Virus record (IMG/VR): IMGVR_UViG_3300047160_006104
Span: 29,865-93,864 of that record
Origin: a virus
Lineage: Duplodnaviria; Heunggongvirae; Uroviricota; Caudoviricetes
Length of the DNA stretch: 64,000 nucleotides
Reading direction: 5' to 3' (one strand)
Shown: positions 1,847 through 61,411 of the stretch, one piece after another
How the letters are laid out: each line of letters starts with the position of its first letter
Numbering within the stretch: position 1 is the first letter of the stretch
The notes under the pieces: generated by a model
The model's input: the letters and a program-made list of their open reading frames with translations, nothing else
The model's database searches: none
What the model was told of the DNA's origin: nothing
Position numbers and translations under genes: made by a program

Positions 1847-2967
1847 CCACCGCCATCATCGACCAACCGCAACTGGCGTCCTACCTGATCAACACCCGCG
1901 TGTACGGGTATGTGGTGCCCGCCACCGGGCAACTGCAGACCACCATGACCTACGAGGTTCAAGGCGACCAGGGCACCCTGATGATGGCCGTCGTGATCGG
2001 ACCCGAAGGCCCAGCCGGCGCGGACATGTTCCTACTCAACCTGCAAACCAGCGCGGTTGAAGACCCCGGCGACCTGCCCCAAAATTTGGGCAACACCAAA
2101 GCCGACATCGGCAAGACGTGGATGTTTGACGACATAGCCGCCAACGGCGACATCATCGGCTCGTCCGCGTACGTGTGGTACGGCACCTCGTATCGGCGGA
2201 TGATGTTCGGCGAACCAGGCCCACCCGGGCCGGTGCCCGTCATCAACCCCAGCGTGACCCTGGTCGACCCGACCACCCAAACCTCCTCGGTCACCATCCC
2301 CACCGGCACCAACCCCTACACCCCGGCGATGAACTTTTCGCTGGCGGCGCCGGCAGGTCCGCAAGGCCCGGCGATGGCGATGGCCACCTGCCCCGACGTG
2401 GACTTGGTCACCAACCCGCCCCAGGCCGGCGACGTGCTGGGCACCACCGGCCGCAAAACCCCCGACGGCAACTACACCATCTGGGAACCCGTCAACATCA
2501 ACCAACTGCTGCCTTCCCCGTTCTCCATGCCCGAATCCTCGTTTTCCTCGTTCTCAGGCATCAGCGCACGCGCAGCCATCGGCAGCTTCGCCATCGCCCA
2601 GCAACCGTGGCCGTGGACGCCGGTGGTGTGGGGTCACATCGGCGCGTTCGGTGTCGAACTGTCCGCTAACCCGCTGCTCATCGGCTGCGAAGTGCGGTTA
2701 GGTGACCCCACCACCGGGCAGCTCATCGGCCGCGGATTCGGCAACTCGCTAGGTGAGGTCAACATCATGCCTCACTATTCGGACCCTAACCAGCCCGGTA
2801 GTGCCATCACCCCAGCCAACACCATGGGCGTGGTCCCAGCTAATCATTCCAATCCGGCCGAAGGAACGATCTACGTGTCGCTTTACAACGACGGAGAGAT
2901 CGGGCTGTACATGTTCCACCCCACTGACGCCCAGCTGTTCATCATGCTGGTCCCGGTCACAACATAA
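1843..2967 (+). CDS. minor tail protein with collagen-like Gly-X-Y stretches
   Basis: 374 aa. GPEGPAGAD, GEPGPPGPVPV, APAGPQGPA motifs typical of mycobacteriophage minor tail proteins. Shares C-terminal domain with upstream gene. Translationally coupled. Confidence 0.7.
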   Translation: MTTAIIDQPQLASYLINTRVYGYVVPATGQLQTTMTYEVQGDQGTLMMAVVIGPEGPAGADMFLLNLQTSAVEDPGDLPQNLGNTKADIGKTWMFDDIAANGDIIGSSAYVWYGTSYRRMMFGEPGPPGPVPVINPSVTLVDPTTQTSSVTIPTGTNPYTPAMNFSLAAPAGPQGPAMAMATCPDVDLVTNPPQAGDVLGTTGRKTPDGNYTIWEPVNINQLLPSPFSMPESSFSSFSGISARAAIGSFAIAQQPWPWTPVVWGHIGAFGVELSANPLLIGCEVRLGDPTTGQLIGRGFGNSLGEVNIMPHYSDPNQPGSAITPANTMGVVPANHSNPAEGTIYVSLYNDGEIGLYMFHPTDAQLFIMLVPVTT

Positions 2968-3074
2968 GGGGGGACAGTCTTATCGCCGGCGCTATTGACC
3001 TGAAATCCGGTAGCCGATCGCTGACCGGAATCAACCTGTTCCAGGTCGACAAAAGCCCGTTAAACGAGCTGAAC

Positions 3075-8606: not shown

Positions 8607-8676
8607 GCGGCTCGACGTCGCACTGCTTAACCGAAGCTCCCTGTAAAAACAGTAACCACCTAAAGGAGAGATTTGA

Positions 8677-9669
8677 ATGTCCTACCCACTGACCACCGCC
8701 TGGACCACCAACTCCACCTTCGCCTACACCGACCAGAACAACATCAACGCCGCCGTCAACTACGCCTGGTTCAGCGTCGACGACGGACCGTTCCCGGTCC
8801 GGCTGGCCACCACCGGCGCAGAAACCTTCACCATCGCCTCGGGTTCGGTCACCACCATCAACGGCACCACCATCGACGGGGTCACCGTGCAGGTCGGTGA
8901 CCCGATCCTGATCAAAGACGCCCCCGCATCCACCGGCGCCGGATCGGTGAACTCGCTGCAACCCGGCAACGGCATCTACTTCGCCACCGCGGTGGCCACC
9001 AACATCAGCGTGGCGCGGGCCAATCCGCTGCTCGGCAACTACGGACCGCAGTCCATCTACAGCGGCCAATCCTCACCGGCTGATCAAGTGGCCATCATCT
9101 CCCCGGCAGGCACCCTCAACGGCGGCTCCATCTGGCAAGTGCTGGCCCCCTCCAACCTCACCACCGCCTTCACCTACGGCACCACCTCCATGCAGTGGCG
9201 CTGCCTGTACGGCGGCGCGGTGTCCATCACCAGCGGCCAGGCCACCTCATCGACCAACCAAACCCAGCTCGCGTCCTACCGGGTGCCCGCCAACGCGATG
9301 GCCGCCGGCACTAGCTACAAAGTGAAAGTGTTCGGCACCCAATCCACCACGTCAGGAACCATCGCCTACCAAATCCACTGCGGCACCGCCAACACCACCG
9401 CCGACGCGGTCATCGCCAACGGCGCATCCCCCGCCGTCGCCGCGTCGGGCACCACCTGGTTCGACGGCCTGTTCACCTGCCGCACCACCGGCTCAGCGGG
9501 AACCTGCATCGCCGGAGGTGTGGGCATCGGATCCACCACCACGGTGTCCACCACCACCGGCACCGCCACCGTCAACACCACCGTGCAGAACTTCGTCTCG
9601 GTGTCCGCGGCGGCCAGCGCCGGCACCCACACCGCGCAAAATATTTTCATCGGACCCGCCGAAGCATAA
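8677..9669 (+). CDS. minor tail / receptor-binding-like protein (Thr/Ser/Gly-rich beta protein)
   Basis: 330 aa. Strong RBS AAAGGAGAG 7 nt upstream of ATG. Composition typical of phage tail tip proteins. Confidence 0.7.
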   Translation: MSYPLTTAWTTNSTFAYTDQNNINAAVNYAWFSVDDGPFPVRLATTGAETFTIASGSVTTINGTTIDGVTVQVGDPILIKDAPASTGAGSVNSLQPGNGIYFATAVATNISVARANPLLGNYGPQSIYSGQSSPADQVAIISPAGTLNGGSIWQVLAPSNLTTAFTYGTTSMQWRCLYGGAVSITSGQATSSTNQTQLASYRVPANAMAAGTSYKVKVFGTQSTTSGTIAYQIHCGTANTTADAVIANGASPAVAASGTTWFDGLFTCRTTGSAGTCIAGGVGIGSTTTVSTTTGTATVNTTVQNFVSVSAAASAGTHTAQNIFIGPAEA

Positions 9670-10328
9670 TGCGGCTGATCGTCGGATTCCCGCTATATCA
9701 CCAGGTCCCGGTCAACTGGTTTTCCCGGTGGCTGGCGATGGAAGCGTTCAACGTCGAAGCCACCATCGTCATCAACGGCGCCTACATCACCGTCGCGATG
9801 GAGATGCTCGTCGCTAAAGCCCTGCAACGCGACAACTGGGACCGCCTCGTCATCTACGAACACGACATGGTCCCACCGGTCAACGCGCTCACCCGCATCG
9901 CCCAATATCAGCCCGAGCACGACATTGTCGGCTGCATGTACTTCAAACACGACCCGCCGCATCACGCGCTGGTGTACATCGAAGAACCCGACACCATCAC
10001 CTACAACCCGATCACCCCGATGACCGTCAAAGACTGGTGCGACGACCCCCGCCTGTATCAGGTCGACGGGGTCGGATTCGGGTTCACTTCCATCGCGCGG
10101 CACGTCCTGGAAAACTGGAACCCTGACATTCCGATGTTTCACCTCGACCACCTGTTCGGGTCGCACGACCTGTGGTTCTGCCACCAGGCCCGCCAACAGG
10201 GCTACCGGGTGTTCGTCGATTCAGGTATCCGCTGCCAACACCTCAGCCAGATACCGATCGGTTACGACGACAACCAGCAGATGGCCGACACCATCGACTA
10301 CGGTCAGGTCATCCCGTTCACACGGTAA
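9669..10328 (+). CDS. GT-A fold glycosyltransferase-like protein
   Basis: 219 aa. 'IYEHDMVPP' (DxD-like acidic motif) and 'FGSHDLWFCHQARQQGYRVFVD' resembling GT2 C-terminal region. ATGA overlap with tail gene. Confidence 0.45.
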   Translation: MRLIVGFPLYHQVPVNWFSRWLAMEAFNVEATIVINGAYITVAMEMLVAKALQRDNWDRLVIYEHDMVPPVNALTRIAQYQPEHDIVGCMYFKHDPPHHALVYIEEPDTITYNPITPMTVKDWCDDPRLYQVDGVGFGFTSIARHVLENWNPDIPMFHLDHLFGSHDLWFCHQARQQGYRVFVDSGIRCQHLSQIPIGYDDNQQMADTIDYGQVIPFTR

Positions 10329-17330: not shown

Positions 17331-17809
17331 CAGTCAACCTTCCGAGGAAAGTTGACCTCAAGTTCGGCACCGGTCCAGTCATCCGTGGCACCCAGCTCAC
17401 GCACTCTAACCATGGTTGCTTCCCAGCCCGACACAACGCGGTCTTGAACGGCGACGCTCCGTCGCTGCTTGCGGATCTCTGTGTCGATCTGCGGCAAAGT
17501 AGCTAATGAAGTAGGAACGGCGAACTCTTCACCCGTCTCCAGATCCTTGGGCCAGACCATTCGGGGCAACGACGCGTATTCCATTCCGGGCAGCGAGATC
17601 TGCAGCGAAAGTCCCTGCCGCTGTGCATCTCTGAAATTCTTCTTGACCGCTTCCTGGTCGCGCAGCAACGCCGCTCGTGCTGCCTGCTCGATGTAGTGTT
17701 CAATATCGCCCGAGGCTTCGATTATCGCGGCCGGGATGCTAACCGTTTCATCGTGGCTTAGCTTCTCGGCCACTCGTACGATGGCGCGGCGGGTAATTAG
17801 GTTACTCAT
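17330..17809 (-). CDS. hypothetical protein
   Basis: 159-aa ORF overlapping neighbours by 1-8 nt. Confidence 0.5.
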   Translation of the reverse strand: MSNLITRRAIVRVAEKLSHDETVSIPAAIIEASGDIEHYIEQAARAALLRDQEAVKKNFRDAQRQGLSLQISLPGMEYASLPRMVWPKDLETGEEFAVPTSLATLPQIDTEIRKQRRSVAVQDRVVSGWEATMVRVRELGATDDWTGAELEVNFPRKVD

Positions 17810-18662
17810 TTGTTGTGTCCTCCTTAAGGTAGACGCGAATCCGGGTTGCTGCCGCAGTGAAGTGCTTAGCGGTTTTCTCTAACTGTTTGCGGTATTCTTT
17901 TTTGAGCGGCGCATCCACGGTCGGCAATTCGGCTGCGGCTTCTTCCGCCTCGATGGCTAACTGTTCGAGTTCACCAGCGGCTTGGGTGAACGGCAGCCAC
18001 AGCGCCATCTCAGCCATGGCTGCCTTCTGTTCAAAGTCCTGCGCGATGCGGTGCGCTGCGTCCAGAGTGAGATCGCCTGAGATGACCTTCTGGGGCTGCT
18101 CAATGAACACGGCGAACTCTGGGCCGAGAGAGTCGGCGCGCTCGGCAACATCAAGGACCGCGCCAGCCTTGGCCATGACGTTGCGCCAGTTGTCGCTATT
18201 CACGGAATCATGAATATCGACGCTTGTGCGCTTCCAGCGCCCGTTTTCGCGGCGTCCGGCTGCTTGTAGCACTACTGCTGTTACCATTGCCCGCTGACCG
18301 GTCGTCATGTTGCGCCGTGCGACATTGGCAGCGATCACGTACTCGGCGATGTCCTCGCCTTCATATATTTCGGTGGTGGCCTGGACCCGAGCACGATTGC
18401 ACGCTTCTAACCGGTTACGTCCGTCAATGATCAACCCATCTTGTGTGATCACAATGGGGTGAAGTAGTCCGATCGTGCGGATGGATTCGGCGAGTTCATC
18501 AAGTTCGGAATCTGGCAATAATGGGAAATTTTCGGCGTACGGATGCACACCAACGATCTCCGCCGTCATTGGTTGGCACCCAGCGGATCGCGATACTCTT
18601 CGCAGGTTAGAGAACTGTCGGCAGGCAAGGCGAAACCTTTCGGTCTCGGCTGGCACATACAC
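17802..18662 (-). CDS. ParB-like N-terminal domain protein
   Basis: 'LLPDSELDELAESIRTIGLLHPIVI..GLIIDGRNRLEA' ParB/Srx fold. C-terminal helical domain. Confidence 0.6.
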   Translation of the reverse strand: MYVPAETERFRLACRQFSNLRRVSRSAGCQPMTAEIVGVHPYAENFPLLPDSELDELAESIRTIGLLHPIVITQDGLIIDGRNRLEACNRARVQATTEIYEGEDIAEYVIAANVARRNMTTGQRAMVTAVVLQAAGRRENGRWKRTSVDIHDSVNSDNWRNVMAKAGAVLDVAERADSLGPEFAVFIEQPQKVISGDLTLDAAHRIAQDFEQKAAMAEMALWLPFTQAAGELEQLAIEAEEAAAELPTVDAPLKKEYRKQLEKTAKHFTAAATRIRVYLKEDTTNE

Positions 18663-22724: not shown

Positions 22725-23729
22725 ATGACCGACAATCCCAGCACAGAACTCGCCGCGATGACCCATGAAATCGAACCCGGTCAAGACTTCATGCTGGTAC
22801 CCACCACCAAAGCGGTGCAGCGCCTCGAGATGCACCAGCGGGCCATGGAACACGCACACGCCATCGCCAAGGTGTATTCGTGGTCCGACGCGGTACCCGA
22901 CGCGTACTGCCGGTTCACCAAAGACAAGGACGGCAACGAGCTCGGCGACCGCGCCACCTACAACGCCACCATCGCCATCCTGCACGGCGTGTCCCTGGGG
23001 CTGTCGCCGGACGCGGCCTTGGAGAACATTTTCATGATCAAAGGCAAACCGGCCACCTACGCAAGGCTGATGGTGGCGTTGGTGAACCGCTGGATCGACG
23101 AACGCGTCGCGGCCGGCCGCACCACCGCCGACCCCGACCACGGCGACCGGATCTGGGAGATCGAGGCCTCGCCAACCAAATGCACCTGGGGCGCGCGGCG
23201 CGACGGCATCACCAAGTACTCGGACTGGACCTATGCGCGCGCCCAGACCGCCGGCTACACCACCAACAAGCTGTATCAGTCCATCCCGCAGGAGATGCTG
23301 ACCGCCAAGGCGCAAGCCGAGGTGTGCCGCATCGTGTTCCCCGATGTGATCCTGGGCCTGTCCCACTCGATCGAGGAACTACGGATGGAGGACGGCATCA
23401 GCGTGCAGCGGATGCCGAGCCGCCGCGGGCCGCGTGGTGTCGAGGCGCTGCGCGAGCTCGCCGAGAAGCAAACGCAAACCGGACCCGGCGACGCCGATCC
23501 CGCGGCGGCCACCGCGGTTTCCGAGGTGCCCGCCGATGTGGCCAGCACTGAACAACTCGAAGCGATCAAAAAACTAGCCCGACAACGCAAACTCGCCGGC
23601 CAGGCGATGCTCGATGACATCGCAGCGTTCCTGCAGCGCCAGCAACCGCTGGGTGAACTGCGCGATCTTAGCCACGAGGAGGCCCAGGCCTACCTCGACG
23701 GGCTGCCTGAGACTGCTGAGCAGCCGTAG
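22725..23729 (+). CDS. RecT-like single-strand annealing protein
   Basis: 'TIAILHGVSLGLSPDAALENIFMIKGKPATYARLMVALV' resembles RecT core. Acidic C-terminus. Confidence 0.55.
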   Translation: MTDNPSTELAAMTHEIEPGQDFMLVPTTKAVQRLEMHQRAMEHAHAIAKVYSWSDAVPDAYCRFTKDKDGNELGDRATYNATIAILHGVSLGLSPDAALENIFMIKGKPATYARLMVALVNRWIDERVAAGRTTADPDHGDRIWEIEASPTKCTWGARRDGITKYSDWTYARAQTAGYTTNKLYQSIPQEMLTAKAQAEVCRIVFPDVILGLSHSIEELRMEDGISVQRMPSRRGPRGVEALRELAEKQTQTGPGDADPAAATAVSEVPADVASTEQLEAIKKLARQRKLAGQAMLDDIAAFLQRQQPLGELRDLSHEEAQAYLDGLPETAEQP

Positions 23730-29729: not shown

Positions 29730-30055
29730 GCGGTGGCCGTAATGCTGAGTTTGTTGGCGGACACGGTCCAGGTGCGCGGGGTGGGTCCGTTGTCCACGAT
29801 CGCCTTGGTGGTGTCGATAGTGACGGATTCTGGTGTGGTGGTGGTGGTCGTGATGGTCACCGGCACGGCCGGGAAATTCGCGGTCGTGGTGGCCCCGTCG
29901 GCGGCCACCAAAGGGACCGACACCGGACCGGCCTGCCCCGTCGTGGTGGTGGTGGTGGTCAGCACATCACTGCCGGCGATGGTGCCGGTGATCGTCTGAC
30001 CCGACGTGTAGGAGGTTTTGTCCCAGGACGCGGTGACGTTGAAGGTGTCAGGCAT
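29726..30055 (-). CDS. Thr-rich small structural-like protein
   Basis: Poly-Thr tracts. Shares 'VPLVAADGAT' with downstream gene. ATGA coupled. Confidence 0.45.
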   Translation of the reverse strand: MPDTFNVTASWDKTSYTSGQTITGTIAGSDVLTTTTTTTGQAGPVSVPLVAADGATTTANFPAVPVTITTTTTTPESVTIDTTKAIVDNGPTPRTWTVSANKLSITATA

Positions 30056-33850: not shown

Positions 33851-34771
33851 GTGGACTTTCTGGTCACCGGCGGCGCGGGTTTCATCGGACGGCATACGGT
33901 CAGAGCGCTCAAGGCCGCGTATTCCGACGCCGAAATCGTCTGTTTGGACAACTTATCGCTGAGTAAGCCACCAGGACGGGATTTCGGCGCGGAGTTTGTC
34001 TATGGCGATGTCCGCGACACCCTGCTGGTCACCCAGATGGTCGAAAGATGCCGTCGCGGCATCATCCACCTGGCCGCCGATTCGCGGGTGCTGCCGTCGC
34101 TGGCCGACCCGGCTTTAGTGTGCGATTCGGCGCGCTCGAATGTGATCGGGACCGCTAACGTGTTGGCCGCGATGGCGAAATCCCCGCGCGATCTGCGGCT
34201 GGTGTACGCGGGTTCGTCCACGGCATACGGCAACCGGCCCGGTCCACCGAACCGGGAGAGGGATCTGCCGGCGGTGCAGAGCCCGTATTCGGCGACCAAA
34301 CTGGCCGGCGAACTGCTGGTGCGGTCGTTCGTGGTGACCTTCGGGATCAAAGCCACGGTGCTGCGCTACTTCCAGGTGTACGGGCCGGGACAACCCACAA
34401 CAGGCGCGTATGCGATGGTGACCGGGGTGTTTCTGCGTCAAGCTGCGGCCGGGGAACCGTTGACGATTGAGGGCAACGGGTCGCAGACCCGCGACTTCGT
34501 GCACGTCACCGACGTAGCCAGAGCCAACGTCGCCGCCTTGGACAGCGTCGGCGCTGTCGGGTTGCCGATCAACATCGGCTCCGGGGAGAGTCATTCCATT
34601 CAGGAACTGGCGGATCTGATCTCGGCGAACCAAACGTATTTGCCGCCGCGGAAAGTGGATTTGAAGGCCACCCAAGCCGACATCAGCCAGGCAGCGAATT
34701 ACCTGGGCTGGAAGCCGCTGATCAGCTTCCGCGACGGGATGGCTGAAATGATGGCATTGGCCAGTCTATGA
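33851..34771 (+). CDS. NAD-dependent sugar epimerase/dehydratase (extended SDR)
   Basis: 'VTGGAGFIGRH' Rossmann. 'YSATK' YxxxK catalytic. 306 aa. Confidence 0.75.
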   Translation: MDFLVTGGAGFIGRHTVRALKAAYSDAEIVCLDNLSLSKPPGRDFGAEFVYGDVRDTLLVTQMVERCRRGIIHLAADSRVLPSLADPALVCDSARSNVIGTANVLAAMAKSPRDLRLVYAGSSTAYGNRPGPPNRERDLPAVQSPYSATKLAGELLVRSFVVTFGIKATVLRYFQVYGPGQPTTGAYAMVTGVFLRQAAAGEPLTIEGNGSQTRDFVHVTDVARANVAALDSVGAVGLPINIGSGESHSIQELADLISANQTYLPPRKVDLKATQADISQAANYLGWKPLISFRDGMAEMMALASL

Positions 34772-35352
34772 GCCAGGATTATTCGCCCGGCCCGTTTTTT
34801 CCCGGCGGCCACTATCCGCTGTTGCGGCACATCTGCGGGGAGCTGAAACCCGCCGGGACCGCGCTGGAGTTCGGTGTCTCCAACGGGTCGAGTTTGCGGA
34901 TCATCGCCGAGCACATGCCGGCGGTGGGGTTCGACAGTTTCGCCGGTCTGCCGGAGGCGGGGTGGCGCGGCTACCCGCTGGGCATGTTCGCGCACAAACC
35001 CCCGGTCATCGCTAACACCCGGCTGGTGATCGGCATGTTCGACCAGACCCTGCCACGCTTCGCCTTCGACACCGTCGACCCGATCGGTTTGGTGCATCTG
35101 GACTGTGACCTGTACTCCTCGACCGGCACTGTCCTGCACTATCTGCAACCCCACCTTAAGTCGGGCTGCTACATCGTCCTCGACGATTATTGGGAGATCG
35201 CGGTCGCTGAAACTGCGGGCGCACAAGAGTTCGACGGCGAGCGGGCGCAGGATGAGGTGTCGCATGCGTGGCGCGAGTTCACCGAACACAGCGACATTGA
35301 GTGGAAAGTGATCGGCTGCACCGGCGGGGCGTGGGCCATCCAGCTCGTCTGA
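34768..35352 (+). CDS. TylF/MycF-family sugar O-methyltransferase
   Basis: 'LVHLDCDLYSSTGTVLHYLQPHLKSGCYIVLDDY' signature of macrocin-O-methyltransferase family. ATGA coupling. Confidence 0.65.
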   Translation: MSQDYSPGPFFPGGHYPLLRHICGELKPAGTALEFGVSNGSSLRIIAEHMPAVGFDSFAGLPEAGWRGYPLGMFAHKPPVIANTRLVIGMFDQTLPRFAFDTVDPIGLVHLDCDLYSSTGTVLHYLQPHLKSGCYIVLDDYWEIAVAETAGAQEFDGERAQDEVSHAWREFTEHSDIEWKVIGCTGGAWAIQLV

Positions 35353-35370
35353 GCGTGTAAGACTTGCGCC

Positions 35371-36396
35371 GTGACACAGGTCATCATCTTCGTTTTTGCT
35401 GGCCGCCGCCCGAACTTGGAGCTGCAGTTGCCGATGGTCCGCAGGATTCTCGATGAGAACCCCAACACGCGTTTTGATATATGGAACTTCGCGCGCAACG
35501 AGTCCGACCGGGAGTTCATCAAAACCATCACCGGTGAGCGGATCATGGTGTGGAACGGCACCAGCGAGGGGTTCGCCTCGCCGGTCCCGACGCTGGGTGA
35601 GGGCAAGCAGTTCGGCGCCGGGGAACATAACGCCGCGTACGAGCACTACAGCCAGCCGCAGTTCAAAGACACCGTGTTCGTCAAGGTGGACGACGACATC
35701 GTGTTCCTCGAGACGGCCCGGTTTGCCACGTTCATCAAAGCGATCCGGGCCTATCCGCACGCCGCTTTGGTGGCCAACATCATCAACAACGGGGCTTGCA
35801 CCCCGGTCACGCCGGGTATTTGGGACGGGTTCCGCAAGCTGGGCATGTCGCTTTTAGATATCCACCGCTACGGCAGTTTCGCCGAGATGGCGCACAGCTA
35901 TTTCTTCACCCACTACGGCGACATGTTGTCCGATGAGGTCGAGCTGATCCCGACCACCGACTGGCTCTCCATCAACGCTGTCGGCTACACGTGGCCGGTG
36001 CTGCAGCGGGTGATCACCACGATCGGCACCCCTCACCCTGCGTATTTGGCTGGCCGTAACATGGTCGGCTGGGGCCGCGTGTTCGGCGACGAGGGCGTGT
36101 TCCAGTTGTTGCCGCGGATCATCGTGAAGGGCTTCACCTGCGCGCATTTGACCTACGGGCCACAAGAGTCGGGTGATTCTCTAGATCGGTGGCGGGAGAA
36201 TTACCGTCTGATCGGCCAAAGCTATCTGGATTCGTTCCCGCCACCCGATCACGTCGACCTGCCGGGCCTGTCGGCGGTGTCGTCGGGGCAGACGGCGCAC
36301 ATTGACCGGGAGGCGTTGATCGCCCAGTGGGGGCCGAACAACTGGCGGGTCCGGGCGTTGGAGAACGACCCGTGCGTGGGACGGTTCACTCCGTAG
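35371..36396 (+). CDS. putative nucleotide-sugar glycosyltransferase (GT-A-like, VDDD motif)
   Basis: 341 aa. 'VFVKVDDDIVFLE' acidic motif. Confidence 0.4.
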   Translation: MTQVIIFVFAGRRPNLELQLPMVRRILDENPNTRFDIWNFARNESDREFIKTITGERIMVWNGTSEGFASPVPTLGEGKQFGAGEHNAAYEHYSQPQFKDTVFVKVDDDIVFLETARFATFIKAIRAYPHAALVANIINNGACTPVTPGIWDGFRKLGMSLLDIHRYGSFAEMAHSYFFTHYGDMLSDEVELIPTTDWLSINAVGYTWPVLQRVITTIGTPHPAYLAGRNMVGWGRVFGDEGVFQLLPRIIVKGFTCAHLTYGPQESGDSLDRWRENYRLIGQSYLDSFPPPDHVDLPGLSAVSSGQTAHIDREALIAQWGPNNWRVRALENDPCVGRFTP

Positions 36397-48137: not shown

Positions 48138-48944
48138 GTGGCGTTCCCAGAAATGACCTACTCGCGGCGTTATCGTGCGCGCATGGCATACAAACTGGGC
48201 TTAAAAGCGCCTGTGCCCGGCGCGATCCCGCTGCGGCTGGCCACCTACATGGACTTCCACCAACTGCCCACCCCACCCGCCGTGTTCGGCCACTACCAGT
48301 TGATCAGCGACTGGGGGATGCTGGCCAACGACCAGCTCGGCGATTGCGCCATCGCCGGCGCCTGCCACCAAACGATGCTGTGGACACTGGAAGGCTCCGG
48401 GGTCGCCGCCTCCTTTGATGACACCGCCGCCATCACCAACTACTCCGCGATCACCGGCTACAACCCCGACGACCCGTCCACCGACGAGGGCACCGCGCTC
48501 GGCCAGCTCGCCGCTTACTGGCGCACTTACGGCATCGTTGACGCCGCCGGCAAACGCCACAAGGTCGCCGCCGTCGTCGATATCAACCCCGGCGACCTAC
48601 GCGAACTGTGGGTGTCCTCGTGGCTGTTCCAAGCCGTCGGCCTCGGGTATCTGATGCCGCAGTCGGCGATGGATCAAACCGCGGCCGGGAAACCCTGGAA
48701 CCCGGTGCGCGGCTCCCCCATCGAAGGAGGTCATTACGTACCACTAATGGGCCGCAACCCCGCCGGCAACGGCGTCATCATCACCTGGGGACAAACCCAA
48801 GAAGTCACCCCCGCCTTCCACAAGAAGTACAACGACCAGGGCATCGCCGCGTTGTCTGAGGAGATGCTGGATAAAGCCGCCAGCGTTGACGGGTTCAACG
48901 AGACGCTACTCAAACAAGACCTGGCCACGATCGGGCTTCCGTGA
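48138..48944 (+). CDS. putative NlpC/P60-like cysteine peptidase (lysis-associated)
   Basis: 'NDQLGDCAIAGACHQTMLW' Cys/His pair. First gene of lysis-side plus-strand block. Start uncertain. Confidence 0.35.
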   Translation: MAFPEMTYSRRYRARMAYKLGLKAPVPGAIPLRLATYMDFHQLPTPPAVFGHYQLISDWGMLANDQLGDCAIAGACHQTMLWTLEGSGVAASFDDTAAITNYSAITGYNPDDPSTDEGTALGQLAAYWRTYGIVDAAGKRHKVAAVVDINPGDLRELWVSSWLFQAVGLGYLMPQSAMDQTAAGKPWNPVRGSPIEGGHYVPLMGRNPAGNGVIITWGQTQEVTPAFHKKYNDQGIAALSEEMLDKAASVDGFNETLLKQDLATIGLP

Positions 48945-49573
48945 CCTGGTGGCACCGCTTGGGCGAGAACAAGCCGATCACGGATCTGCTCGAGCGGGTC
49001 GGCCCACCGTCCATCGACGCCGCCACCGAGCATCCGCTCAGCGACCTGTCGGTGCTCAACCAGTTCAAAGCCGCACCTTTCCCCCCTGGTTATCCCGCCT
49101 ACACACCCACGTTCTACAGCCCGGTCGACGACATTCCATCGGTGTTGCAGACGCTGTTCAGCGGGGCGCAGAAGTCGCTGGTGATCTGCTTTTACGGGTT
49201 CGATGACGAGAAGCTGGCCGACATCATCAAAGAGAAAGCCGAAGATCCTGGTGTCGCGGTACAGATCAGCCTGGATTCCACGCAGGCCGGCGGCGTCCAC
49301 GAGAAAGCCTTGCTGGCCAAGGAAGCGTATCCGTCCTCGTCGGTCGCCGTCGGGCAAAGCGAGAAACACGCCATCATGCACATGAAGCTGGCGATCATCG
49401 ACGGCGTGTACGTGGTGACGGGCAGCACCAACCTGTCGGTGCGCGCCGAAACCGCCCAGGACAACCAACTCACCGTGGTCGGCGATGCTTACGTCGCGGC
49501 CGAGGCGCGGGCACGCTGCGACGCGATCCACTTCAACATGCTCAACCAAATGCACGCCAAGGGGTTGCGCTAA
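48941..49573 (+). CDS. phospholipase D / Nuc-family single-HKD protein
   Basis: 'HMKLAIIDGVYVVTGSTNLS' = HxK(x)4D(x)6GSxN motif, single copy. 210 aa. ATGA coupled. Confidence 0.65.
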   Translation: MTWWHRLGENKPITDLLERVGPPSIDAATEHPLSDLSVLNQFKAAPFPPGYPAYTPTFYSPVDDIPSVLQTLFSGAQKSLVICFYGFDDEKLADIIKEKAEDPGVAVQISLDSTQAGGVHEKALLAKEAYPSSSVAVGQSEKHAIMHMKLAIIDGVYVVTGSTNLSVRAETAQDNQLTVVGDAYVAAEARARCDAIHFNMLNQMHAKGLR

Positions 49574-51024
49574 TGCTGCTCAGGTCCAACGTCGAATTTT
49601 CTAAACGGGTTTTTCTCGACCGTTTAACGTGTGACAATGGCCAGCCGCTAGTACAACCCGCAGACATTGACGCTGGCCCCGGCGACCTTTATGAATATGG
49701 CGGCTGCTTCGATGCGTTCAATTTTGGTACTGGTGCGGATTGCTCCGGCTGCGTAGGAATTGTCACTGCGGCGGCGCTGAACGGCACGGCGATGCAATGG
49801 CAACGCTATTTCTCGACCGAAACCTTCCCCAACGGTTTCCATAATTTTCAGCAGGTGTCCCAGCAGGCGTGCATCAACTCGAAGTCGCCGATCAAGGTGA
49901 TGATCATGCACGGGGGTGGCGGCCCCAACAGCCATATGGCGTGTCAGATCGACGGCTGGGACATGGAGTCCAACGGTGATTTCGGCGTGTGCACCGACCC
50001 GCCGGAGATCACCGGCCTGACCAGCGACTACTGGAATGACTGGTGGATCTCGACGGACACCATCTCCGAGGACACCACCTACCGGACGCCGAGAACCTAC
50101 CCGCTCGGGCTGGACTATGCGGGCGGGCGCATCGCCGGCGCCGACCTCAAGGCGGCCGGGGTCGCGTTCGTGTGCCGCTACCTGTCCGACGGCGGCACCA
50201 GCTTGCCGAACAAGCAGTTGCAGCCGGCCGAGGCTGCGGACCTGATGGCTAACGGCATCGAGATCGTCTCCAACTGGGAAACGAACGCGCAGATGATGCT
50301 CGGCGGCTATCAGCAGGGCATCACCGACGCGAACGCGGCCCGCGCCCAGCAGGTGGCCTGCGGCGGCCCACCCGGCGCGACGGTGTATTTCAGCGCCGAC
50401 TTCGACGCGGCACCCACCCAGCAGACCGCGATCAACCAGTATTTGCAGGGCTGCTGCGACGCCCTCGGCGGTCCCGGTCACGTCGGGATTTACGGCTCCT
50501 ACTACGTGGGTATGCGCGCACTGAACGCCGGGGTGTGCTCGTACTTCTGGCAGACCGAAGCCTGGAGCGGGGGCAGCGTCGACTCAAGGGTAGCGATCAT
50601 TCAACGCAACCAGGTCGGCTATAAGACCGTGTCCGGTGTGCAGTGCGACATCAACGAGGCACACGCCGACGACATCGGCCAATGGCATAACTATGTGATC
50701 ACCCCGCCGGCCCCGTCGCCGGTTCCTGATCCGGGTGGCCCGCCCGACTATGCCGTCCTGGCGTATGAGCAGTTAGCCGGGCCGCGTGGCCTTAATGGAT
50801 ACGGCGTAGGGTGGTCTCAGCTCAACGGGCACACCTTGGTGGATGCGATCGCTGAGATCGGTCAGCATCTGGGTTTGGCGGGTTATGCGCCGCCGGTTCC
50901 GCCTGCCACGCCACCACCCGCACCGCCGGCTCCCCCAAGCCCGGCGGTGTCCACCCGGCGTGGCAGGCCCCCAGCCAAAAAAACCCCGGCCAAAAAGACC
51001 GCGGCGAGAGGTACACGGAAATGA
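49573..51024 (+). CDS. lysA: endolysin Lysin A (NlpC/P60-like peptidase + DUF1906/GH25-like glycoside hydrolase + Pro-rich basic tail)
   Basis: 'GADCSGCVGIV' peptidase motif. Central 'LDYAGGRIAGADLKAAGVAFVCRYLSDGG...YFWQTEAWSGG' Rv2525c-like glycosidase domain. Position next to lysB. Confidence 0.75.
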   Translation: MLLRSNVEFSKRVFLDRLTCDNGQPLVQPADIDAGPGDLYEYGGCFDAFNFGTGADCSGCVGIVTAAALNGTAMQWQRYFSTETFPNGFHNFQQVSQQACINSKSPIKVMIMHGGGGPNSHMACQIDGWDMESNGDFGVCTDPPEITGLTSDYWNDWWISTDTISEDTTYRTPRTYPLGLDYAGGRIAGADLKAAGVAFVCRYLSDGGTSLPNKQLQPAEAADLMANGIEIVSNWETNAQMMLGGYQQGITDANAARAQQVACGGPPGATVYFSADFDAAPTQQTAINQYLQGCCDALGGPGHVGIYGSYYVGMRALNAGVCSYFWQTEAWSGGSVDSRVAIIQRNQVGYKTVSGVQCDINEAHADDIGQWHNYVITPPAPSPVPDPGGPPDYAVLAYEQLAGPRGLNGYGVGWSQLNGHTLVDAIAEIGQHLGLAGYAPPVPPATPPPAPPAPPSPAVSTRRGRPPAKKTPAKKTAARGTRK

Positions 51025-51404
51025 CCACACCCGATGACATCCAGGCCGACATCTCCGGCGTCGCACCACCTGAAGCACCTAATGCCGGCGACCCGCAGCC
51101 GTGGCGGTTAGTGAAAGCCCGATGGCCGCGCAACATCGGCGACATCGTCAACGACCCCAACCGCGGCCCATGGACCAGCAACCACAACGGCAAACCGTAC
51201 CAAGGAACCTTCGACGCTTACGAGCAGCAGGTCTGCGTCGCCGAACAGCTCGCCTGGACACACAAATTCTCCGACGGCATCGTCCGCGACCCCGGCGACA
51301 TCCTCATCGAACTCATGGAATTCGTGATCGCGTGGAGGGCTACCCAGGCGCCGCCGCCAGTGAAAGCACCAGCACCCGACGCTGGGCGGAAGCGAAGATG
51401 GTGA
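51021..51404 (+). CDS. hypothetical protein
   Basis: 127 aa, ATGA-coupled to lysA. Confidence 0.45.
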   Translation: MTTPDDIQADISGVAPPEAPNAGDPQPWRLVKARWPRNIGDIVNDPNRGPWTSNHNGKPYQGTFDAYEQQVCVAEQLAWTHKFSDGIVRDPGDILIELMEFVIAWRATQAPPPVKAPAPDAGRKRRW

Positions 51405-51892
51405 CCGAACGCTGGCTGCCCATCGCTGGATACCGAGGTTTCTACGAGGTCTCGGACCATGGCCGCGTGCGCTCAATAGACCGAACGGTGATCACCAAGC
51501 GTGGACCGTGGCGATATCGCGGACGGCCGCTAAAACCATGGAAGCGAGACGACGACCACTTCACGGTTCGTATGGATCATCAGCACGTCCGCATTCACAG
51601 ACTCGTCCTAGAAGCCTTTGTCGGTCCATGCCCAGACGGGATGGAAGCCTGCCACAACGATGGGAACCCGGCGAACAATCACCTGAGCAACTTGCGGTGG
51701 GATACACGCCGGGAAAACATCCTTGATGCGATCAAGCACGGATCACACCATTGGGCCAAGAAGAGTCATTGCCCGCTGGGGCATCCATACAGTACAGATA
51801 ACACTTATGTGACCGTCCGGCGCAGCGGATATGTAACACGACGTTGTAAAACATGCCATAAGGCAGAAGCTCGGCGCCGGAGGGCAGCATGA
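51398..51892 (+). CDS. HNH homing endonuclease (NUMOD4 N-terminus) between lysA and lysB
   Basis: 'WLPIAGYRGFYEVSDHGRVRSIDR'. 'CHNDGNPANNHLSNLRWDTRRENI' HNH. Confidence 0.65.
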   Translation: MVTERWLPIAGYRGFYEVSDHGRVRSIDRTVITKRGPWRYRGRPLKPWKRDDDHFTVRMDHQHVRIHRLVLEAFVGPCPDGMEACHNDGNPANNHLSNLRWDTRRENILDAIKHGSHHWAKKSHCPLGHPYSTDNTYVTVRRSGYVTRRCKTCHKAEARRRRAA

Positions 51893-52707
51893 CGCCGCAA
51901 CCGGTACTGTTCACTGTCACGGGCACGGGCGTGCCGGACGGTTTTGGCCCAGGGTTCAGCGCTGATGTAGGCCGGGCGTTCGCCTATGATCCTTGGGCCG
52001 CGCTCGCCGCGAACACCGCTGGGGTCATCTACAGCACACCTGTGTATTGGCAGCCCTGTTCCTACCCGGCGGCTGTGTATCCGATGCAACCATCGGTGCA
52101 AGCGGGCCGCGCGGAAGTCTGCCGCCAGATAGGATTACGCCCGCAGGGAACTCCCATATTTCTCTCAGGATACTCACAGGGCGCTATGGTGACCAACGCC
52201 GTCTGGGTATCCGACATCCTTTCACCCAATGGCAGCCTCCACGATCGGCTGACCGATGTGAAAGGCATCATCCAATTCGGTGACCCCAACCGCTGCCCAG
52301 GTGTGGCGCACGGCAACGAAGTAGCGGGCCTGGCATTACCCACTACGAAGGACGGTGTGGTGACAGGTGGGATCGCTGGTCCTGGCGATCTGCGGCCCAG
52401 CCAGACGCCGCCATTTCTGCTCTCCGCAGCGAACGATGGTGACCTGTACGCGGCTTGTCCGGTGGGAGCCAATCCGTGGTCGTCGGAATCGCCGGCCGGG
52501 AAAACGGAGACGGGGATTTTCAACATTGTGCAGGCCGCGACGTTTTTCGATGTGGTCGCGGTGGCGGAGGATTTGGGTCGGCCGGTGGGTACGATTGAGG
52601 CGTTGTGGAATGGGATGGTGTTCGCCAGCGAAGGAACAAACGCTCCTCACTGGAGGTACTCACCCTTTGTGCCGGCGATGGTCGACTGGATCAACAAGCA
52701 GATATGA
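51889..52707 (+). CDS. lysB: Lysin B mycolylarabinogalactan esterase (cutinase-like)
   Basis: 'FLSGYSQGAMV' G-Y-S-Q-G serine esterase motif. Overall LysB-like. Confidence 0.75.
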   Translation: MTPQPVLFTVTGTGVPDGFGPGFSADVGRAFAYDPWAALAANTAGVIYSTPVYWQPCSYPAAVYPMQPSVQAGRAEVCRQIGLRPQGTPIFLSGYSQGAMVTNAVWVSDILSPNGSLHDRLTDVKGIIQFGDPNRCPGVAHGNEVAGLALPTTKDGVVTGGIAGPGDLRPSQTPPFLLSAANDGDLYAACPVGANPWSSESPAGKTETGIFNIVQAATFFDVVAVAEDLGRPVGTIEALWNGMVFASEGTNAPHWRYSPFVPAMVDWINKQI

Positions 52708-53381: not shown

Positions 53382-53600
53382 ATGACAGAGTCTGAGTTGG
53401 CGGTGGCGGCGCCGGAGGAACTCGCGTTGAGTTTGTCGGGGTTGGATGTGTCGGGTTTGATCGGTAACGCTGAGAGCGTGATCGGTTTGTTGTCGACGGT
53501 GCTGGGTTTGGTGGCGAAGGTGCCGGGTCCGCAGCAGGCGGCGGCGGCGGATGCGGTCAAAGTGTTGCAGGGGTTGGAGACGATCCTGGGCAAGCTATAA
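53382..53600 (+). CDS. small protein with one weak hydrophobic segment (holin candidate, weak)
   Basis: 'VIGLLSTVLGLVAKV'. Last gene before terminator. Confidence 0.35.
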   Translation: MTESELAVAAPEELALSLSGLDVSGLIGNAESVIGLLSTVLGLVAKVPGPQQAAAADAVKVLQGLETILGKL

Positions 53601-53691: not shown

Positions 53692-54060
53692 TTAGTCTCT
53701 GAACAGGTGGGCGAGGCGTAGGTGTGACATGAGGTGTTCGGCGTGGCGGAAGGTGTGGGCTAGGCGTGCTGAGCGGACGGCTTGTACGAGTAGCAGGTTG
53801 CCGGTGGCCGGGATCAGCGCGACCGCGATCACTAGCACATCGAAGATGAGCCATTTGTCGGCCAGGATGGTGCGTGGGTTCCAGCCGTGTCGGTGCATTT
53901 GGATGCCTGCGGTGGTGCCGAAGAACAGCAGGAAGCAGTAGTGGGCGTATTCGAATGCTTCGGGTTCGTCGCAGGCCCAGCCGGTGAGGGTGATGATGAA
54001 GCTGATGATGGTGGCGGCTAGGACGATGGTTTCGAATCGGCTGCGCCGGTGGGTGATCAT
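53692..54060 (-). CDS. three-TM membrane protein
   Basis: 'IVLAATIISFIITLTGW', 'YCFLLFFGTTAGI', 'LIFDVLVIAVALIPATGNLLLV'. Confidence 0.45.
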   Translation of the reverse strand: MITHRRSRFETIVLAATIISFIITLTGWACDEPEAFEYAHYCFLLFFGTTAGIQMHRHGWNPRTILADKWLIFDVLVIAVALIPATGNLLLVQAVRSARLAHTFRHAEHLMSHLRLAHLFRD

Positions 54061-54545
54061 GTGATCCACCGTTCTATGCGTTGGTATCCGGCGGTGCTGT
54101 GGGTCCAGTGGTAGACCCAAGCGGCGACGCCGTTGATGGTTTGGGTGGGGATGCGTTCGAACAGGTACGGGTGTCCTTCGATGTCGTCGAGGATGGGAAG
54201 TACGATGTCGACGGTTTCGGGTTTGAGGGTGACGGTGTATCCGGGGATGTGGGGGTAGGAGAATGTGGTGATGACGGCTGCGGGCCAGCCGTAGCCGGTG
54301 TCGTAGAGTTCGCCGTTGATGGCGTCGGCGGTGTGGTTGTCGCAGTAGGGTTCTAGTGTGGTCCAGCGGTGTTGGCCTGGGGCGAGTGTTCCGTAGATAA
54401 ACACCTTCGTCATATAACGCCCGAGTAGCTCCTCATCCTCGGGGGTTAGAACTCTTGGCTCCCTTACCTTTTCGATGTAGCGCCTACCCAGGTCTACGAG
54501 CGGCTGGGCGTCCTCGTACGTGATCGCGCTGCGCTTTTCACCCAT
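54057..54545 (-). CDS. gamma-glutamyl cyclotransferase / AIG2-like protein
   Basis: 'KVFIYGTLAPGQ' GGCT-fold signature. Confidence 0.5.
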   Translation of the reverse strand: MGEKRSAITYEDAQPLVDLGRRYIEKVREPRVLTPEDEELLGRYMTKVFIYGTLAPGQHRWTTLEPYCDNHTADAINGELYDTGYGWPAAVITTFSYPHIPGYTVTLKPETVDIVLPILDDIEGHPYLFERIPTQTINGVAAWVYHWTHSTAGYQRIERWIT

Positions 54546-55778: not shown

Positions 55779-56102
55779 TTAGGCCAGCAGGCCCGCGGTT
55801 TTCAGGTGGTTGGTTCCCATTACCCGCAGGGTGGCCCGGTCATCCACACTCAGCCGTCCCAGCCCCGGCAGCACATACCCTTGGGGATAGGTGTAGAAGC
55901 TGCGCACGATATAACCGTTCGCGGACAGCACCTGGGTACGCAGCGTGCCGCACTCATGCAGACACGCGAACACCCGATGAATCTCTCTGTCTTTACGGCT
56001 GATCCGCACATCGTGAGCACGCCACGCATGCCCATAGTCGCGGCACTGCAAAAACATGTCGGCTATGTCGTCGATCGTGTGATGCGGCTTCTCTTTAGCC
56101 AT
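55779..56102 (-). CDS. hypothetical protein
   Basis: Start MAKEK. RBS GAGAGGAACACAGG. Confidence 0.4.
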   Translation of the reverse strand: MAKEKPHHTIDDIADMFLQCRDYGHAWRAHDVRISRKDREIHRVFACLHECGTLRTQVLSANGYIVRSFYTYPQGYVLPGLGRLSVDDRATLRVMGTNHLKTAGLLA

Positions 56103-56722
56103 TAACCTGTGTTCCTCTCGTGTGCTGCGTTGTAGGCGGCGAGAACTTCGCCCTTGATCTGGCCGGTGGCTGCTTGGTCGAGGTCTGGCCGGTGCCGAAT
56201 CGCCCAACGCCGAACCTTGCTCCGCTCGGTCTTAGACAGCCCCAAACGGTCCTGATCGCCAATCAGAGCGCTCAGCGGAACTTCACCGTTATACCGGCCG
56301 GCCGCTTCACGGACCTGCTGCGCGGTGACCGACTCAATATCCTGGGTGACCCAACCCGTCCCCTCCAGAATCGGATCCTCAGGATGAACCTGCGCGTAAG
56401 CGTCGATGAGGTTTTGCTTCGGCAATCCCTTCATCCCCACCTCGAAACCCTGCTGTCTGCCCCAGGCTTTGATGCGGTCGCGTTGCGCTTTCTCCGCGCG
56501 GCCCTCGACCGACTTACGCGTGCTGCGCCGCAGCACCGGAGCGGCACGCGGCACTATCCGCGCCGCTGCGATCCAGCGCGCCACGTCGGCGTCGAACTCG
56601 CTTTCATGGGCACTGGTCAGGTCGATCTCGTAGTCGACACCTTTGACGCTGAACAGCACGGTGGCGTCGGCCAGCGACTCCTGATCCAGGTCGTCGCGGA
56701 TACGGATAACGACTTCACGCAT
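56102..56722 (-). CDS. Lsr2-like nucleoid-associated protein with duplicated C-terminal DNA-binding domain
   Basis: N-term 'VVIRIRDDLDQESLADATVLFSVKGVDYEIDL' = Lsr2 dimerisation domain. 'RIKAWGRQQGFEVGMKGLPKQNLIDAYAQV' and 'VRRWAIRHRPDLDQAATGQIKGEVLAAYNAAH' = two Lsr2-type DBDs. Confidence 0.65.
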   Translation of the reverse strand: MREVVIRIRDDLDQESLADATVLFSVKGVDYEIDLTSAHESEFDADVARWIAAARIVPRAAPVLRRSTRKSVEGRAEKAQRDRIKAWGRQQGFEVGMKGLPKQNLIDAYAQVHPEDPILEGTGWVTQDIESVTAQQVREAAGRYNGEVPLSALIGDQDRLGLSKTERSKVRRWAIRHRPDLDQAATGQIKGEVLAAYNAAHERNTG

Positions 56723-60508: not shown

Positions 60509-61354
60509 TCATGCCGACTTCGCCTTGGCAGCCTTGGCTTTGCCCTTGGCTTTACCGGCAGGGTGACGCGCAATCGAGGCCTCAAGTGCGGCCATCAGAT
60601 CGGCCACGTCTTCGACGGTTTCGGCTTCTTGGCGCACCGGCATGGGTGCACCGGCCTGTTTCGCGTCGAGCAACTCGTTGACCTTGGCCGCGTACTCATC
60701 GACCATCGACTCATCGACCTCGGAGAAATCAGCCACCATCTGTTCCATGAACTGTGTGGCCAGCTTTTTCACCTTCGGGTCAAGTTCGACCGGCTTTTTC
60801 AATGATGCGAAGTCAGCTTCACGTAGCTCGTCGCGCCACAGCACGTTTTGCATGACGATCACGTCACCGACAGGGCGCAGGATGGCCTGGTGGGTGCGCC
60901 CGCGCATGGTGTAGCGGACGACCGCGACTCGGCGGGATTCTTCCATGATGGTGCGGATCAGCGCATACCCTTCGGGCGCGTTCTTGTTGACTTTCACGTC
61001 GGGTTCCAGGTAGTACGGGGTTTCCAGTCGCAGCGGGTTGATTTCATCGAAGTTGACGAACGCTTCCACGTCGAAGTCTTTGCCGCTGTCGGTTTCGCAT
61101 TCGGCGAGTTCCTCGGCGGTGACCAGGATCGCGGTGTCGCCGCGCATCTGGCCGCGTACGAGGTCGTTGCGGTTGGGGATGGTTTCGCCGCAGTCGTTGC
61201 ACACGCACGGCATGGACACGCGCGAAGCGGAGCCGTCGTCGTGGACGTGGAACATGTTGAAGCTGATGGCGTGGGATTCGGTGGCCGCGTATTGGCGTAC
61301 GGGGACGCTGATGAAGGGTCCGAAGCTGATGTTGGTGTTGCTCATTGATCGCAT
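60509..61354 (-). CDS. ku: Ku (non-homologous end-joining DNA end-binding protein)
   Basis: 'ISFGPFISVPVRQYAA', 'YYLEPDVK', 'VVRYTMRGRTHQAILRP' colinear with bacterial Ku. Lys/Ala-rich tail. Confidence 0.75.
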   Translation of the reverse strand: MRSMSNTNISFGPFISVPVRQYAATESHAISFNMFHVHDDGSASRVSMPCVCNDCGETIPNRNDLVRGQMRGDTAILVTAEELAECETDSGKDFDVEAFVNFDEINPLRLETPYYLEPDVKVNKNAPEGYALIRTIMEESRRVAVVRYTMRGRTHQAILRPVGDVIVMQNVLWRDELREADFASLKKPVELDPKVKKLATQFMEQMVADFSEVDESMVDEYAAKVNELLDAKQAGAPMPVRQEAETVEDVADLMAALEASIARHPAGKAKGKAKAAKAKSA

Positions 61355-61369
61355 GGTGTCTGTTCCAAT

Positions 61370-61411
61370 CTCTATACCACAATCATACGGCATGTCACGC
61401 CAACAAGTCAA
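61370..61411 (-). promoter_or_regulatory. conserved sigmaA-type promoter (TTGACT-N18-TATGAT), copy 2, driving ku
   Basis: Paralogous to 58717..58758. Confidence 0.55.

Follow-up and report, generated by a model that had tools for sequence, protein, structure and literature searches.

A single-HKD phospholipase D-superfamily gene in actinophage lysis cassettes, a candidate accessory of envelope lysis

In the current view, phages lyse mycobacteria and other Actinobacteria by means of lysin A (LysA), lysin B (LysB) and holins. Enzymes of the phospholipase D (PLD) superfamily are familiar from other settings. Among those with a single HKD motif, Nuc is periplasmic, the dimeric Zucchini/mitoPLD appears in the literature as a cardiolipin hydrolase and also as a nuclease, and membrane-active members exist. 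The Tle5 enzymes (PldA, PldB) of the type VI secretion system (T6SS), which are secreted effectors with two HKD motifs, and the rickettsial single-HKD Pld of about 200 amino acids (aa) are PLD-family enzymes able to attack membranes. A PLD domain is absent from the LysA and LysB domains listed in PMC3314691, which does count a papain/C39-like domain (N5) among the LysA modules. In some Wolbachia WO phages, a PLD-family endonuclease lies near a putative patatin lytic cassette (PMC9203015). Here, we describe a single-HKD PLD gene in the lysis cassette of a mycobacteriophage-like virus of the Caudoviricetes, contained in a stretch of 64,000 nucleotides (IMG/VR record IMGVR_UViG_3300047160_006104, positions 29,865 to 93,864; hereafter the window), and tentatively read its product as an accessory enzyme that would act on the cell envelope at lysis.

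The gene and its motif are placed as follows.

48941-49573, plus strand: single-HKD PLD-superfamily gene, 210 aa (204 aa possible if the start is the TTG at 48959)
49379-49432, plus strand: catalytic HKD motif HMKLAIIDGVYVVTGSTN, residues 147-164 (H147, K149, D154, G161-S162, N164), followed by a conserved E170

The segment HMKLAIIDGVYVVTGSTN fits HxK(x4)D(x6)GSxN and is the sole match to HxK(x4)D(x6)G[ST]xN in the six frames of the window, while the open reading frame (ORF) contains only one HxK(x4)D; the original prediction, made from the letters of the window, of a canonical motif in single copy at this place was therefore exact. The protein scores 57 bits against Pfam PLDc_2 (E 2.1e-15; cut-off 27), which indicates that the motif match is not due to chance. 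Among 121 homologues no change is seen at K149, D154, G161, S162 or N164, and conservation reaches at least 90% at H147 and E170. One family member (P0002) carries Arg in place of the catalytic His, which an inactive variant or a sequencing error may explain. The start codon, GTG at 48941 or TTG at 48959, is uncertain, with the majority of homologues starting near residue 30. A hydropathy scan of the 210-aa protein found no hydrophobic segment fit for a signal peptide or membrane anchor, and the N-termini of homologues are polar.

An AlphaFold (AF2) model built on the 121-sequence alignment reached a pLDDT of 87.2 (59-77 over the first 30 residues) and a pTM of 0.81. Foldseek returned 140 matches in the PDB at E<=1e-3, and all 50 listed were PLD-fold proteins, led by NucT and Nuc (TM about 0.76-0.78, normalised to the target; E 1e-11 to 5e-10) and followed by Zucchini, FAM83 and PLD3, and then by two-HKD phospholipases, each matched via one of its two domains. 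Sequence search of solved structures matched only Nuc (pKM101), NucT (H. pylori) and Zucchini/mitoPLD, at E 5e-5 to 1e-3 with the single sequence as query and at E 4e-11 to 2e-5 with the 121-sequence profile (Nuc 3.8e-11; NucT 2e-10), and gave no match at E<=0.01 to the two-HKD enzymes phospholipase D, cardiolipin synthase and phosphatidylserine synthase. With one motif per chain, the protein lies outside the classical two-HKD phospholipase D class; its single HKD, its size and its nearest relatives by sequence and structure, Nuc and NucT, place it in the Nuc-like single-HKD subfamily, as had been proposed. Presumably it forms a homodimer in which two HKD motifs make up one active site. Taken together, motif and model predict that this single-HKD enzyme of the PLD superfamily is catalytically competent and folds like Nuc.

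Since Nuc and NucT are the nearest characterised homologues by both profile and fold, the alternative raised from the outset, an endonuclease acting on host DNA, is a live one. On this account, a metal-independent nuclease of the Nuc/NucT type would be made with the lysis proteins and become active when the cell opens, degrading DNA or RNA of the host chromosome or outside the cell, lowering viscosity and freeing virions from a matrix rich in DNA; or else, late in infection, it would destroy the nucleic acid of the host. Directly behind the HKD motif, the stretch AET..N closely matches that of Nuc, and Nuc-type enzymes act outside the cytoplasm, which is compatible with release at lysis. NCBIfam and PADLOC also gave DrmC (of DISARM) and NucT as matches, but both are weak and far below threshold: DrmC, the best, reached 41.8 bits against a cut-off of 133, and the NucT/Nuc equivalog (PRK13912) 25-38 bits against cut-offs of 211-351. 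Moreover, the protein lacks the N-terminal signal peptide of a Nuc-type secreted nuclease, and an unspecific nuclease without one would sit in the same compartment as phage DNA under replication and packaging. We regard this account as the main rival, with a rather low probability, to be weighed against the gene context set out below. If it were correct, the gene would clearly exemplify a lysis programme with a nuclease as an integral part, with relevance to phage release from DNA-rich biofilms.

Around the PLD gene, the window holds the following features.

48138-48944, plus strand: stand-alone papain-fold (C1/C39-like) cysteine peptidase gene, 268 aa (phrog_19005, E 7e-33)
48941-48944, plus strand: GTGA overlap of the PLD GTG start with the peptidase TGA stop
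49571-49575, plus strand: TAATG overlap of the PLD TAA stop with the lysA ATG start
49573-51024, plus strand: LysA, 483 aa, with an N-terminal peptidase-like region and an Rv2525c-like glycoside hydrolase (GH) domain
51021-51404, plus strand: 127-aa ORF, function unassigned (phrog_2424, E 3.5e-33)
51401-51892, plus strand: HNH homing-type endonuclease gene, between lysA with the 127-aa ORF and lysB (phrog_1492, E 3e-69)
51889-52707, plus strand: LysB, of the cutinase-like mycolylarabinogalactan esterase family (phrog_102, E 7.6e-43)
53382-53600, plus strand: 72-aa ORF with one hydrophobic segment, a weak holin candidate from the hydropathy scan only
53692-54120, minus strand: multi-transmembrane protein, the other holin candidate, on the strand opposite to the cassette

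The two overlaps, GTGA and TAATG, bear out at the sequence level the translational coupling that had been proposed, and profile matches on either side confirm the placement between a peptidase and LysA. LysA matches Pfam PF08924 (E 6e-27) and the endolysin PHROGs 13480, 6707 and 317, and its GH domain is 60% identical to that of lysin A of the M. abscessus prophage prophi91-3. The predicted presence of LysB in the cassette was likewise upheld by phrog_102 and by a match to Pfam Cutinase that falls slightly under the cut-off (E 4.5e-5). Counted from the PLD gene, LysA is at +1 and LysB at +3 including the HNH gene (+4 in our gene calls). The HNH gene was missed by the GC-frame gene caller, which suggests atypical composition; it is probably a mobile insertion that splits the cassette and stands outside the lysis mechanism. 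No confident holin was identified in the window cassette, which offers two weak candidates only. The cassette is read rightward as an operon of its own, about 40 kb away from the tail genes (77-10328), and a consensus scan for sigma-70-type promoters, which leaves other promoter types outside it, and for terminator-like sites found neither on the PLD strand from the start of the peptidase gene to the end of lysB.

This compact arrangement bears on a second alternative, in which the gene would be cargo (a 'moron'), a toxin or a defence gene merely near lysis genes, for example a DrmC-like nuclease or a lipase or nuclease toxin with its releasing peptidase, to the benefit of the lysogen or to keep out competitors. 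Such a gene would hardly be expected to overlap both neighbours, to resemble them in GC content at third codon positions (0.84 vs 0.78-0.81) and to show neither a sigma-70-type promoter nor a terminator of its own in the scan. There is background in its favour, as polymorphic toxins use papain-like peptidases for their release and the DNases of Streptococcus pyogenes prophages adjoin lysis genes; in addition, DrmC is the best NCBIfam/PADLOC match and many family members lie in prophages, near the prophage end with host genes adjoining. Against this, no immunity-like partner gene is evident, and the family keeps 45-70% identity at a fixed position instead of being scattered. Membership of DISARM itself was ruled out by the low DrmC score and by the neighbours, which are a peptidase, LysA and LysB without drmA, drmB or methylase. 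The more distant homologues outside phages (34-43% identity, in Proteobacteria and Acidobacteria) sit in ordinary chromosomal neighbourhoods and not in defence islands, which also speaks against a defence role; they were otherwise set aside, as such a context says nothing on the actinophage clade. We consider a moron, toxin or defence gene improbable.

To place the window among its relatives, 160 loci were fetched and their genes called by a simple GC-frame method, which is crude and is the one that missed the HNH gene. Dereplication of the PLD proteins at 90% identity left 100 core loci, window included, whose neighbours were labelled with small profile families seeded from the LysA, LysB and peptidase of the window and from annotated cluster representatives. 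A wall-hydrolase-like gene lies at -3 to +4 of the PLD gene in 53 of the 100 loci, against 24.3 expected, with a peak at -1 to +3; a GH-type lysin lies in the same interval in 40 of the 48 loci having one within the 20 kb, against 15.3 expected. The expectation was drawn from random genes of the same loci, and none of 2000 simulations reached either observed count. Independent Pfam tallies at +1 and +2 gave GH25, Rv2525c-like, Amidase_2, NlpC/P60, Peptidase_C1, C92 and DUF1003 neighbours. The adjoining lysins thus belong to unrelated, non-orthologous families, which implies that the linkage has outlasted exchange of the modules themselves. At -1 we found Peptidase_C1, GDSL lipases, PE-PPE hydrolases, Tle1-like phospholipases, beta-helix tail proteins and a holin, with Tle1-like phospholipase, GDSL lipase and PE-PPE genes in two loci each, and LysB-like genes occupy +3 to +5 in 9 loci. 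By hydropathy, small same-strand membrane proteins at -2 to +1 and at +4 occur at about twice their frequency elsewhere, and one r1t-holin domain adjoins PLD (P0146). The median gap from the PLD gene to a same-strand downstream gene in the related loci is -4 nt, as given by the crude gene calls. With overlaps on both flanks, LysA and LysB nearby and a linkage conserved in relatives, the gene has the marks of a lysis-cassette member. For a nuclease, lipase and holin neighbours would not be expected, and the neighbour tallies at -1, +1 and +2 showed no enrichment of DNA-metabolism genes beside the PLD gene.

The recurrent order in these loci is large tail genes, (peptidase), PLD, (small membrane protein), lysin, small membrane protein and, in mycolata-type phages, (LysB). 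A third alternative takes its cue from this order: the protein could be a tail-borne, virion-associated entry enzyme that opens membrane or wall at the start of infection. The PLD gene indeed follows large tail, tape-measure or minor-tail genes in many loci, and beta-helix depolymerase-like tail proteins stand at -1 in 3. Tail proximity is, however, expected in any case, because the lysis cassette of actinophage siphoviruses normally follows the tail genes, and in the window the two lie about 40 kb apart. In two further loci (L167, L168) the cassette precedes terminase, and overall the PLD gene is more tightly linked with lysins and holin-like genes than with tail genes, so that we hold an entry enzyme to be very improbable.

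Several neighbours deserve mention in their own right. A DUF1003 membrane protein gene stands at +1, usually overlapping the PLD gene, in 6 of 99 loci (L001, L012, L024, L088, L091, L105), and VIT1-like membrane proteins occupy +1 in 3 further loci; DUF1003 may be an unrecognised holin-like partner. A Tle1-like (DUF2235, T6SS) phospholipase gene lies directly upstream of PLD in three related Actinomycetota contigs (L099, 8827-10002; L102, 8842-10173; L103, 8828-9700). An apparent Tle1-like-PLD fusion in L103 proved to be a frameshift, and in L099 and L102 the two are adjacent genes in different frames.

The link between the PLD gene and its upstream neighbour goes beyond adjacency. In the 268-aa peptidase, N64, C70, H199 and W217 (TWG motif) are invariant in 55 homologues; its AF2 model (pLDDT 92.1) was matched by Foldseek to Der f 1, xylellain and procathepsins, and its relatives bear the UniRef name 'Peptidase C39-like domain-containing protein'. 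In 23 of the 100 loci, a peptidase of this family is no more than three genes away from PLD. An exhaustive search of the representatives further revealed a 461-aa protein (P0135) in which a peptidase, a proline-rich linker and a PLD domain are joined with both catalytic motifs intact, and whose N-terminal half is 34% identical to the window peptidase (E 5e-37). Two other fusions, P0271 and P0272, are 80% and 75% identical to it over the full length; such versions from other samples make a sequencing artefact an unlikely explanation for P0135. The three proteins (457-468 aa) are metagenomic, diverged and from three samples. The contig of P0135 is too short to show neighbours, and context was therefore taken from P0271 and P0272, where the fusion adjoins a Transglycosylase+NlpC/P60(+LysM) lysin directly upstream of terminase, in one case also with a GDSL lipase. 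Judged from these sequences, the fusion argues that peptidase and PLD would act jointly, at the same place and time, and fusion to a papain-like peptidase in lysis cassettes is not what a nuclease would lead one to expect. Other apparent fusions were not retained. That of PLD with the r1t-holin domain (P0146) occurs once, on a 1975-bp contig, was not seen again among the 120 best matches listed, and was counted as adjacency; long PLD ORFs were all start-extension artefacts in GC-rich DNA.

The family comprises 767 proteins at E<=1e-3 in a 90%-clustered collection, the best matches being 60-70% identical and about 180 aa long, and 71 representatives at E<=1e-30 in a 50%-clustered collection. 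Its sources are phage-like metagenomic contigs and prophage regions of Actinomycetota, to whose phages and prophages the core family is confined; hosts include Mycolicibacterium, Mycobacterium, Streptomyces, Kitasatospora, Streptacidiphilus, Amycolatopsis, Catenulispora, Cellulomonadaceae and Solirubrobacterales, among others. By tblastn at E<=1e-5 the family was not found in 50,697 deposited phage genomes, and relaxation to E<=5 yielded only weak matches in Wolbachia phage WO and one Ralstonia jumbo phage (RsoM2USA). Among deposited phages, megablast with the 4.6-kb lysis-cassette stretch gave no nucleotide-level match, and a NucT fragment used to hunt for PLD genes of cultured phages found none. 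As far as these searches reach, isolate collections miss a widespread lysis-cassette layout, the family being common in metagenomes and prophages and absent from >50,000 deposited phage genomes, the large collection of cultured actinophages among them.

Taking these lines together, the reading we favour, at somewhat less than even confidence, is that the PLD protein serves as an accessory phosphodiesterase, released by the holin and directed at the cell envelope, and is a conserved part of actinophage lysis cassettes. The context points to the envelope through lysin, lipase and holin-like neighbours, the peptidase fusion and the restriction to Actinomycetota. The protein would be made late, on one translationally coupled message with the papain-like peptidase and LysA, and, having neither signal peptide nor transmembrane segment, would build up in the cytoplasm. 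As it carries no export signal, it would rely on the holin to reach the envelope, and permeabilisation of the membrane would bring it to its substrate, as for LysA and LysB. There it would cut an envelope phosphodiester common to Actinobacteria, most likely in membrane phospholipid head groups (cardiolipin, phosphatidylinositol (PI) and its mannosides (PIMs), phosphatidylethanolamine), another candidate being the phosphodiester that anchors wall glycopolymers to peptidoglycan. Such cleavage would help peptidoglycan hydrolases and lipases to finish lysis.

A number of observations weigh against this envelope role. About 47% of loci have no recognised lysin nearby, and the loci share ancestry, so that the counts of 53 in 100 and 40 in 48 are not independent; in one locus (L002) the PLD gene sits among DNA polymerase, replication and nucleotide-metabolism genes and not beside lysins. 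Among solved structures, only Nuc, NucT and Zucchini/mitoPLD are detectable by sequence, and these are also the top fold matches, with weak DrmC and NucT family matches besides and no two-HKD phospholipase among the sequence matches. Neither a lipid-binding insertion nor a wall-binding domain was found in the PLD protein, and the role of its peptidase partner as a lysin is putative. Homology thus points to nucleases, yet the single-HKD clade is not uniform, given that the PDB names mitoPLD 'cardiolipin hydrolase'. Charge helps little: the catalytic segment has an isoelectric point (pI) of 4.65 as compared with 9.0-9.7 for the aligned segments of Nuc, NucT and mouse Zucchini, an acidity that sets it somewhat apart from these enzymes and would lean weakly towards the envelope. 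The argument is weak because Galaxy gp53, a protein of an Arthrobacter phage annotated as a 'NucT-like nuclease', is likewise acidic, and charge was dropped as a discriminator of lipid from DNA although the contrast is real. This same protein is encoded beside genes for a single-stranded DNA-binding protein (SSB) and dCMP deaminase, not lysis genes, and cannot be aligned with the PLD protein, which in turn tells against a nuclease in the cassette.

The outcome is therefore mixed for the proposal, made with the original prediction, of a lipid-directed lysis accessory that attacks mycobacterial envelope phospholipids and complements LysB. An accessory role gains support from about 100 diverged loci linked to lysins, holin-like proteins and lipases and from the peptidase fusions. 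A target specific to the mycobacterial envelope, or a complement to LysB, appears unlikely, as most members occur in phages or prophages of Streptomyces, Kitasatospora, Amycolatopsis, Solirubrobacterales and others, most of whose loci show no LysB. A bolder form of the envelope reading, to which we give a rather low probability, would make the protein the third class of actinophage lysin beside LysA (peptidoglycan) and LysB (mycolyl ester), namely a holin-delivered PLD phosphodiesterase, in tandem with or fused to a papain-like peptidase, that would cut the anchor of arabinogalactan or teichoic-type polymers or the head groups of cardiolipin, PI or PIM. If true, there would be another envelope bond that phages must break, and with it an unrecognised step in the lysis of Actinobacteria, and a new enzyme class to try as a lytic agent against mycobacteria and actinomycetes.

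The window and its relatives offer further observations that lie apart from the PLD gene. Encoded in the window are a Ku-like DNA end-binding protein (60509-61411, minus strand) and an Lsr2-like nucleoid protein (56102-56722, minus strand), a pair that we take to recall large temperate or cluster J/O-type mycobacteriophages, as well as a RecT-like annealing protein (22725-23729, plus strand) and a ParB-like protein (17802-18662, minus strand). Right after two minor-tail genes, an ORF of 1843 aa (3075-8606, plus strand) without a PHROG match at E<=1e-5 may represent a novel type of very large protein for the tail or for recognition of the host. A nucleotide-sugar epimerase and a glycosyltransferase in tandem (33851-36396, plus strand; phrog_540, phrog_4447) may serve glycosylation of the virion or host surface. 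A tRNA-Arg(CCG) gene (44831-44909, plus strand) adjoins a 380-aa minus-strand ORF (phrog_14065, function unassigned). In L002 (ENA contig k127_259159, 103 kb), an adenylosuccinate-synthetase-like gene (PurZ-like?), a dCTP deaminase/dUTPase and a family A DNA polymerase (5079-6248, 8794-9249) may indicate a 2-aminoadenine (Z) genome.

Full-text search of the literature turned up no report of PLD-family genes in the lysis cassettes of actinophages, and only the WO paper comes near. Comparison with known systems nevertheless brings out how the locus is related to each of them. Like the PLD protein, Nuc (PDB 1byr) and NucT (6ehi) have a single HKD, a core of about 150 aa, the same fold and a Glu after the motif. 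They share only 22-27% identity with it, are basic where it is acidic, and lack its setting in a phage lysis cassette; compared with Nuc, the PLD protein has in addition a conserved N-terminal K-x-x-PFPPGYP and a long C-terminal helix, both outside the aligned part, and it is without the signal peptide that would suit a periplasmic enzyme. Zucchini/mitoPLD (PLD6; 4ggj, 4ggk) resembles it in its single HKD, size, sequence and fold, and shares its ambiguity between lipid and nucleic acid, but is eukaryotic, membrane-anchored and basic, with E values of only 1e-5 to 1e-4. DrmC of DISARM is likewise a short PLD-family protein and differs in context, which in the window is phage lysis. The Galaxy protein is, as here, an actinophage protein of PLD fold (Foldseek against BFVD, E 5e-6), but it gives no BLASTP alignment, has a degenerate motif and is encoded in the replication arm among SSB, dCMP deaminase and recombination genes.

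The closest positional precedent is the PLD-family gene of the WO phages. In Wolbachia phage WO, the 'phospholipase D' gwv_1105 (L163, 4935-5456) is flanked by a patatin-like phospholipase and a holin-like gene, by the tail module. It is 29% identical to the PLD protein (E 2e-3), stands on the strand opposite to its neighbours and is found in few WO variants. Its lipoprotein-type signal (…LLSGC) and pI of 8.9 are unlike the PLD protein, and such a signal implies that its export would be independent of lysis, in contrast to what is expected for the window protein. With mycobacteriophage LysB and the modular LysA the PLD protein shares the cassette and, presumably, holin-dependent delivery; its domain can be fused to a papain-like peptidase much as LysA domains are combined, and like LysB it is predicted to aim at an envelope bond outside peptidoglycan. 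It differs from both in its fold, in its bond, a phosphodiester as opposed to a carboxyl ester or a glycosidic or peptide bond, and in not being limited to hosts with mycolic acids. What appears to be new, in a superfamily and fold already known, is a conserved clade tied to the lysis cassette that is paired, and at times fused, with a papain-like peptidase and is absent from cultured phages.

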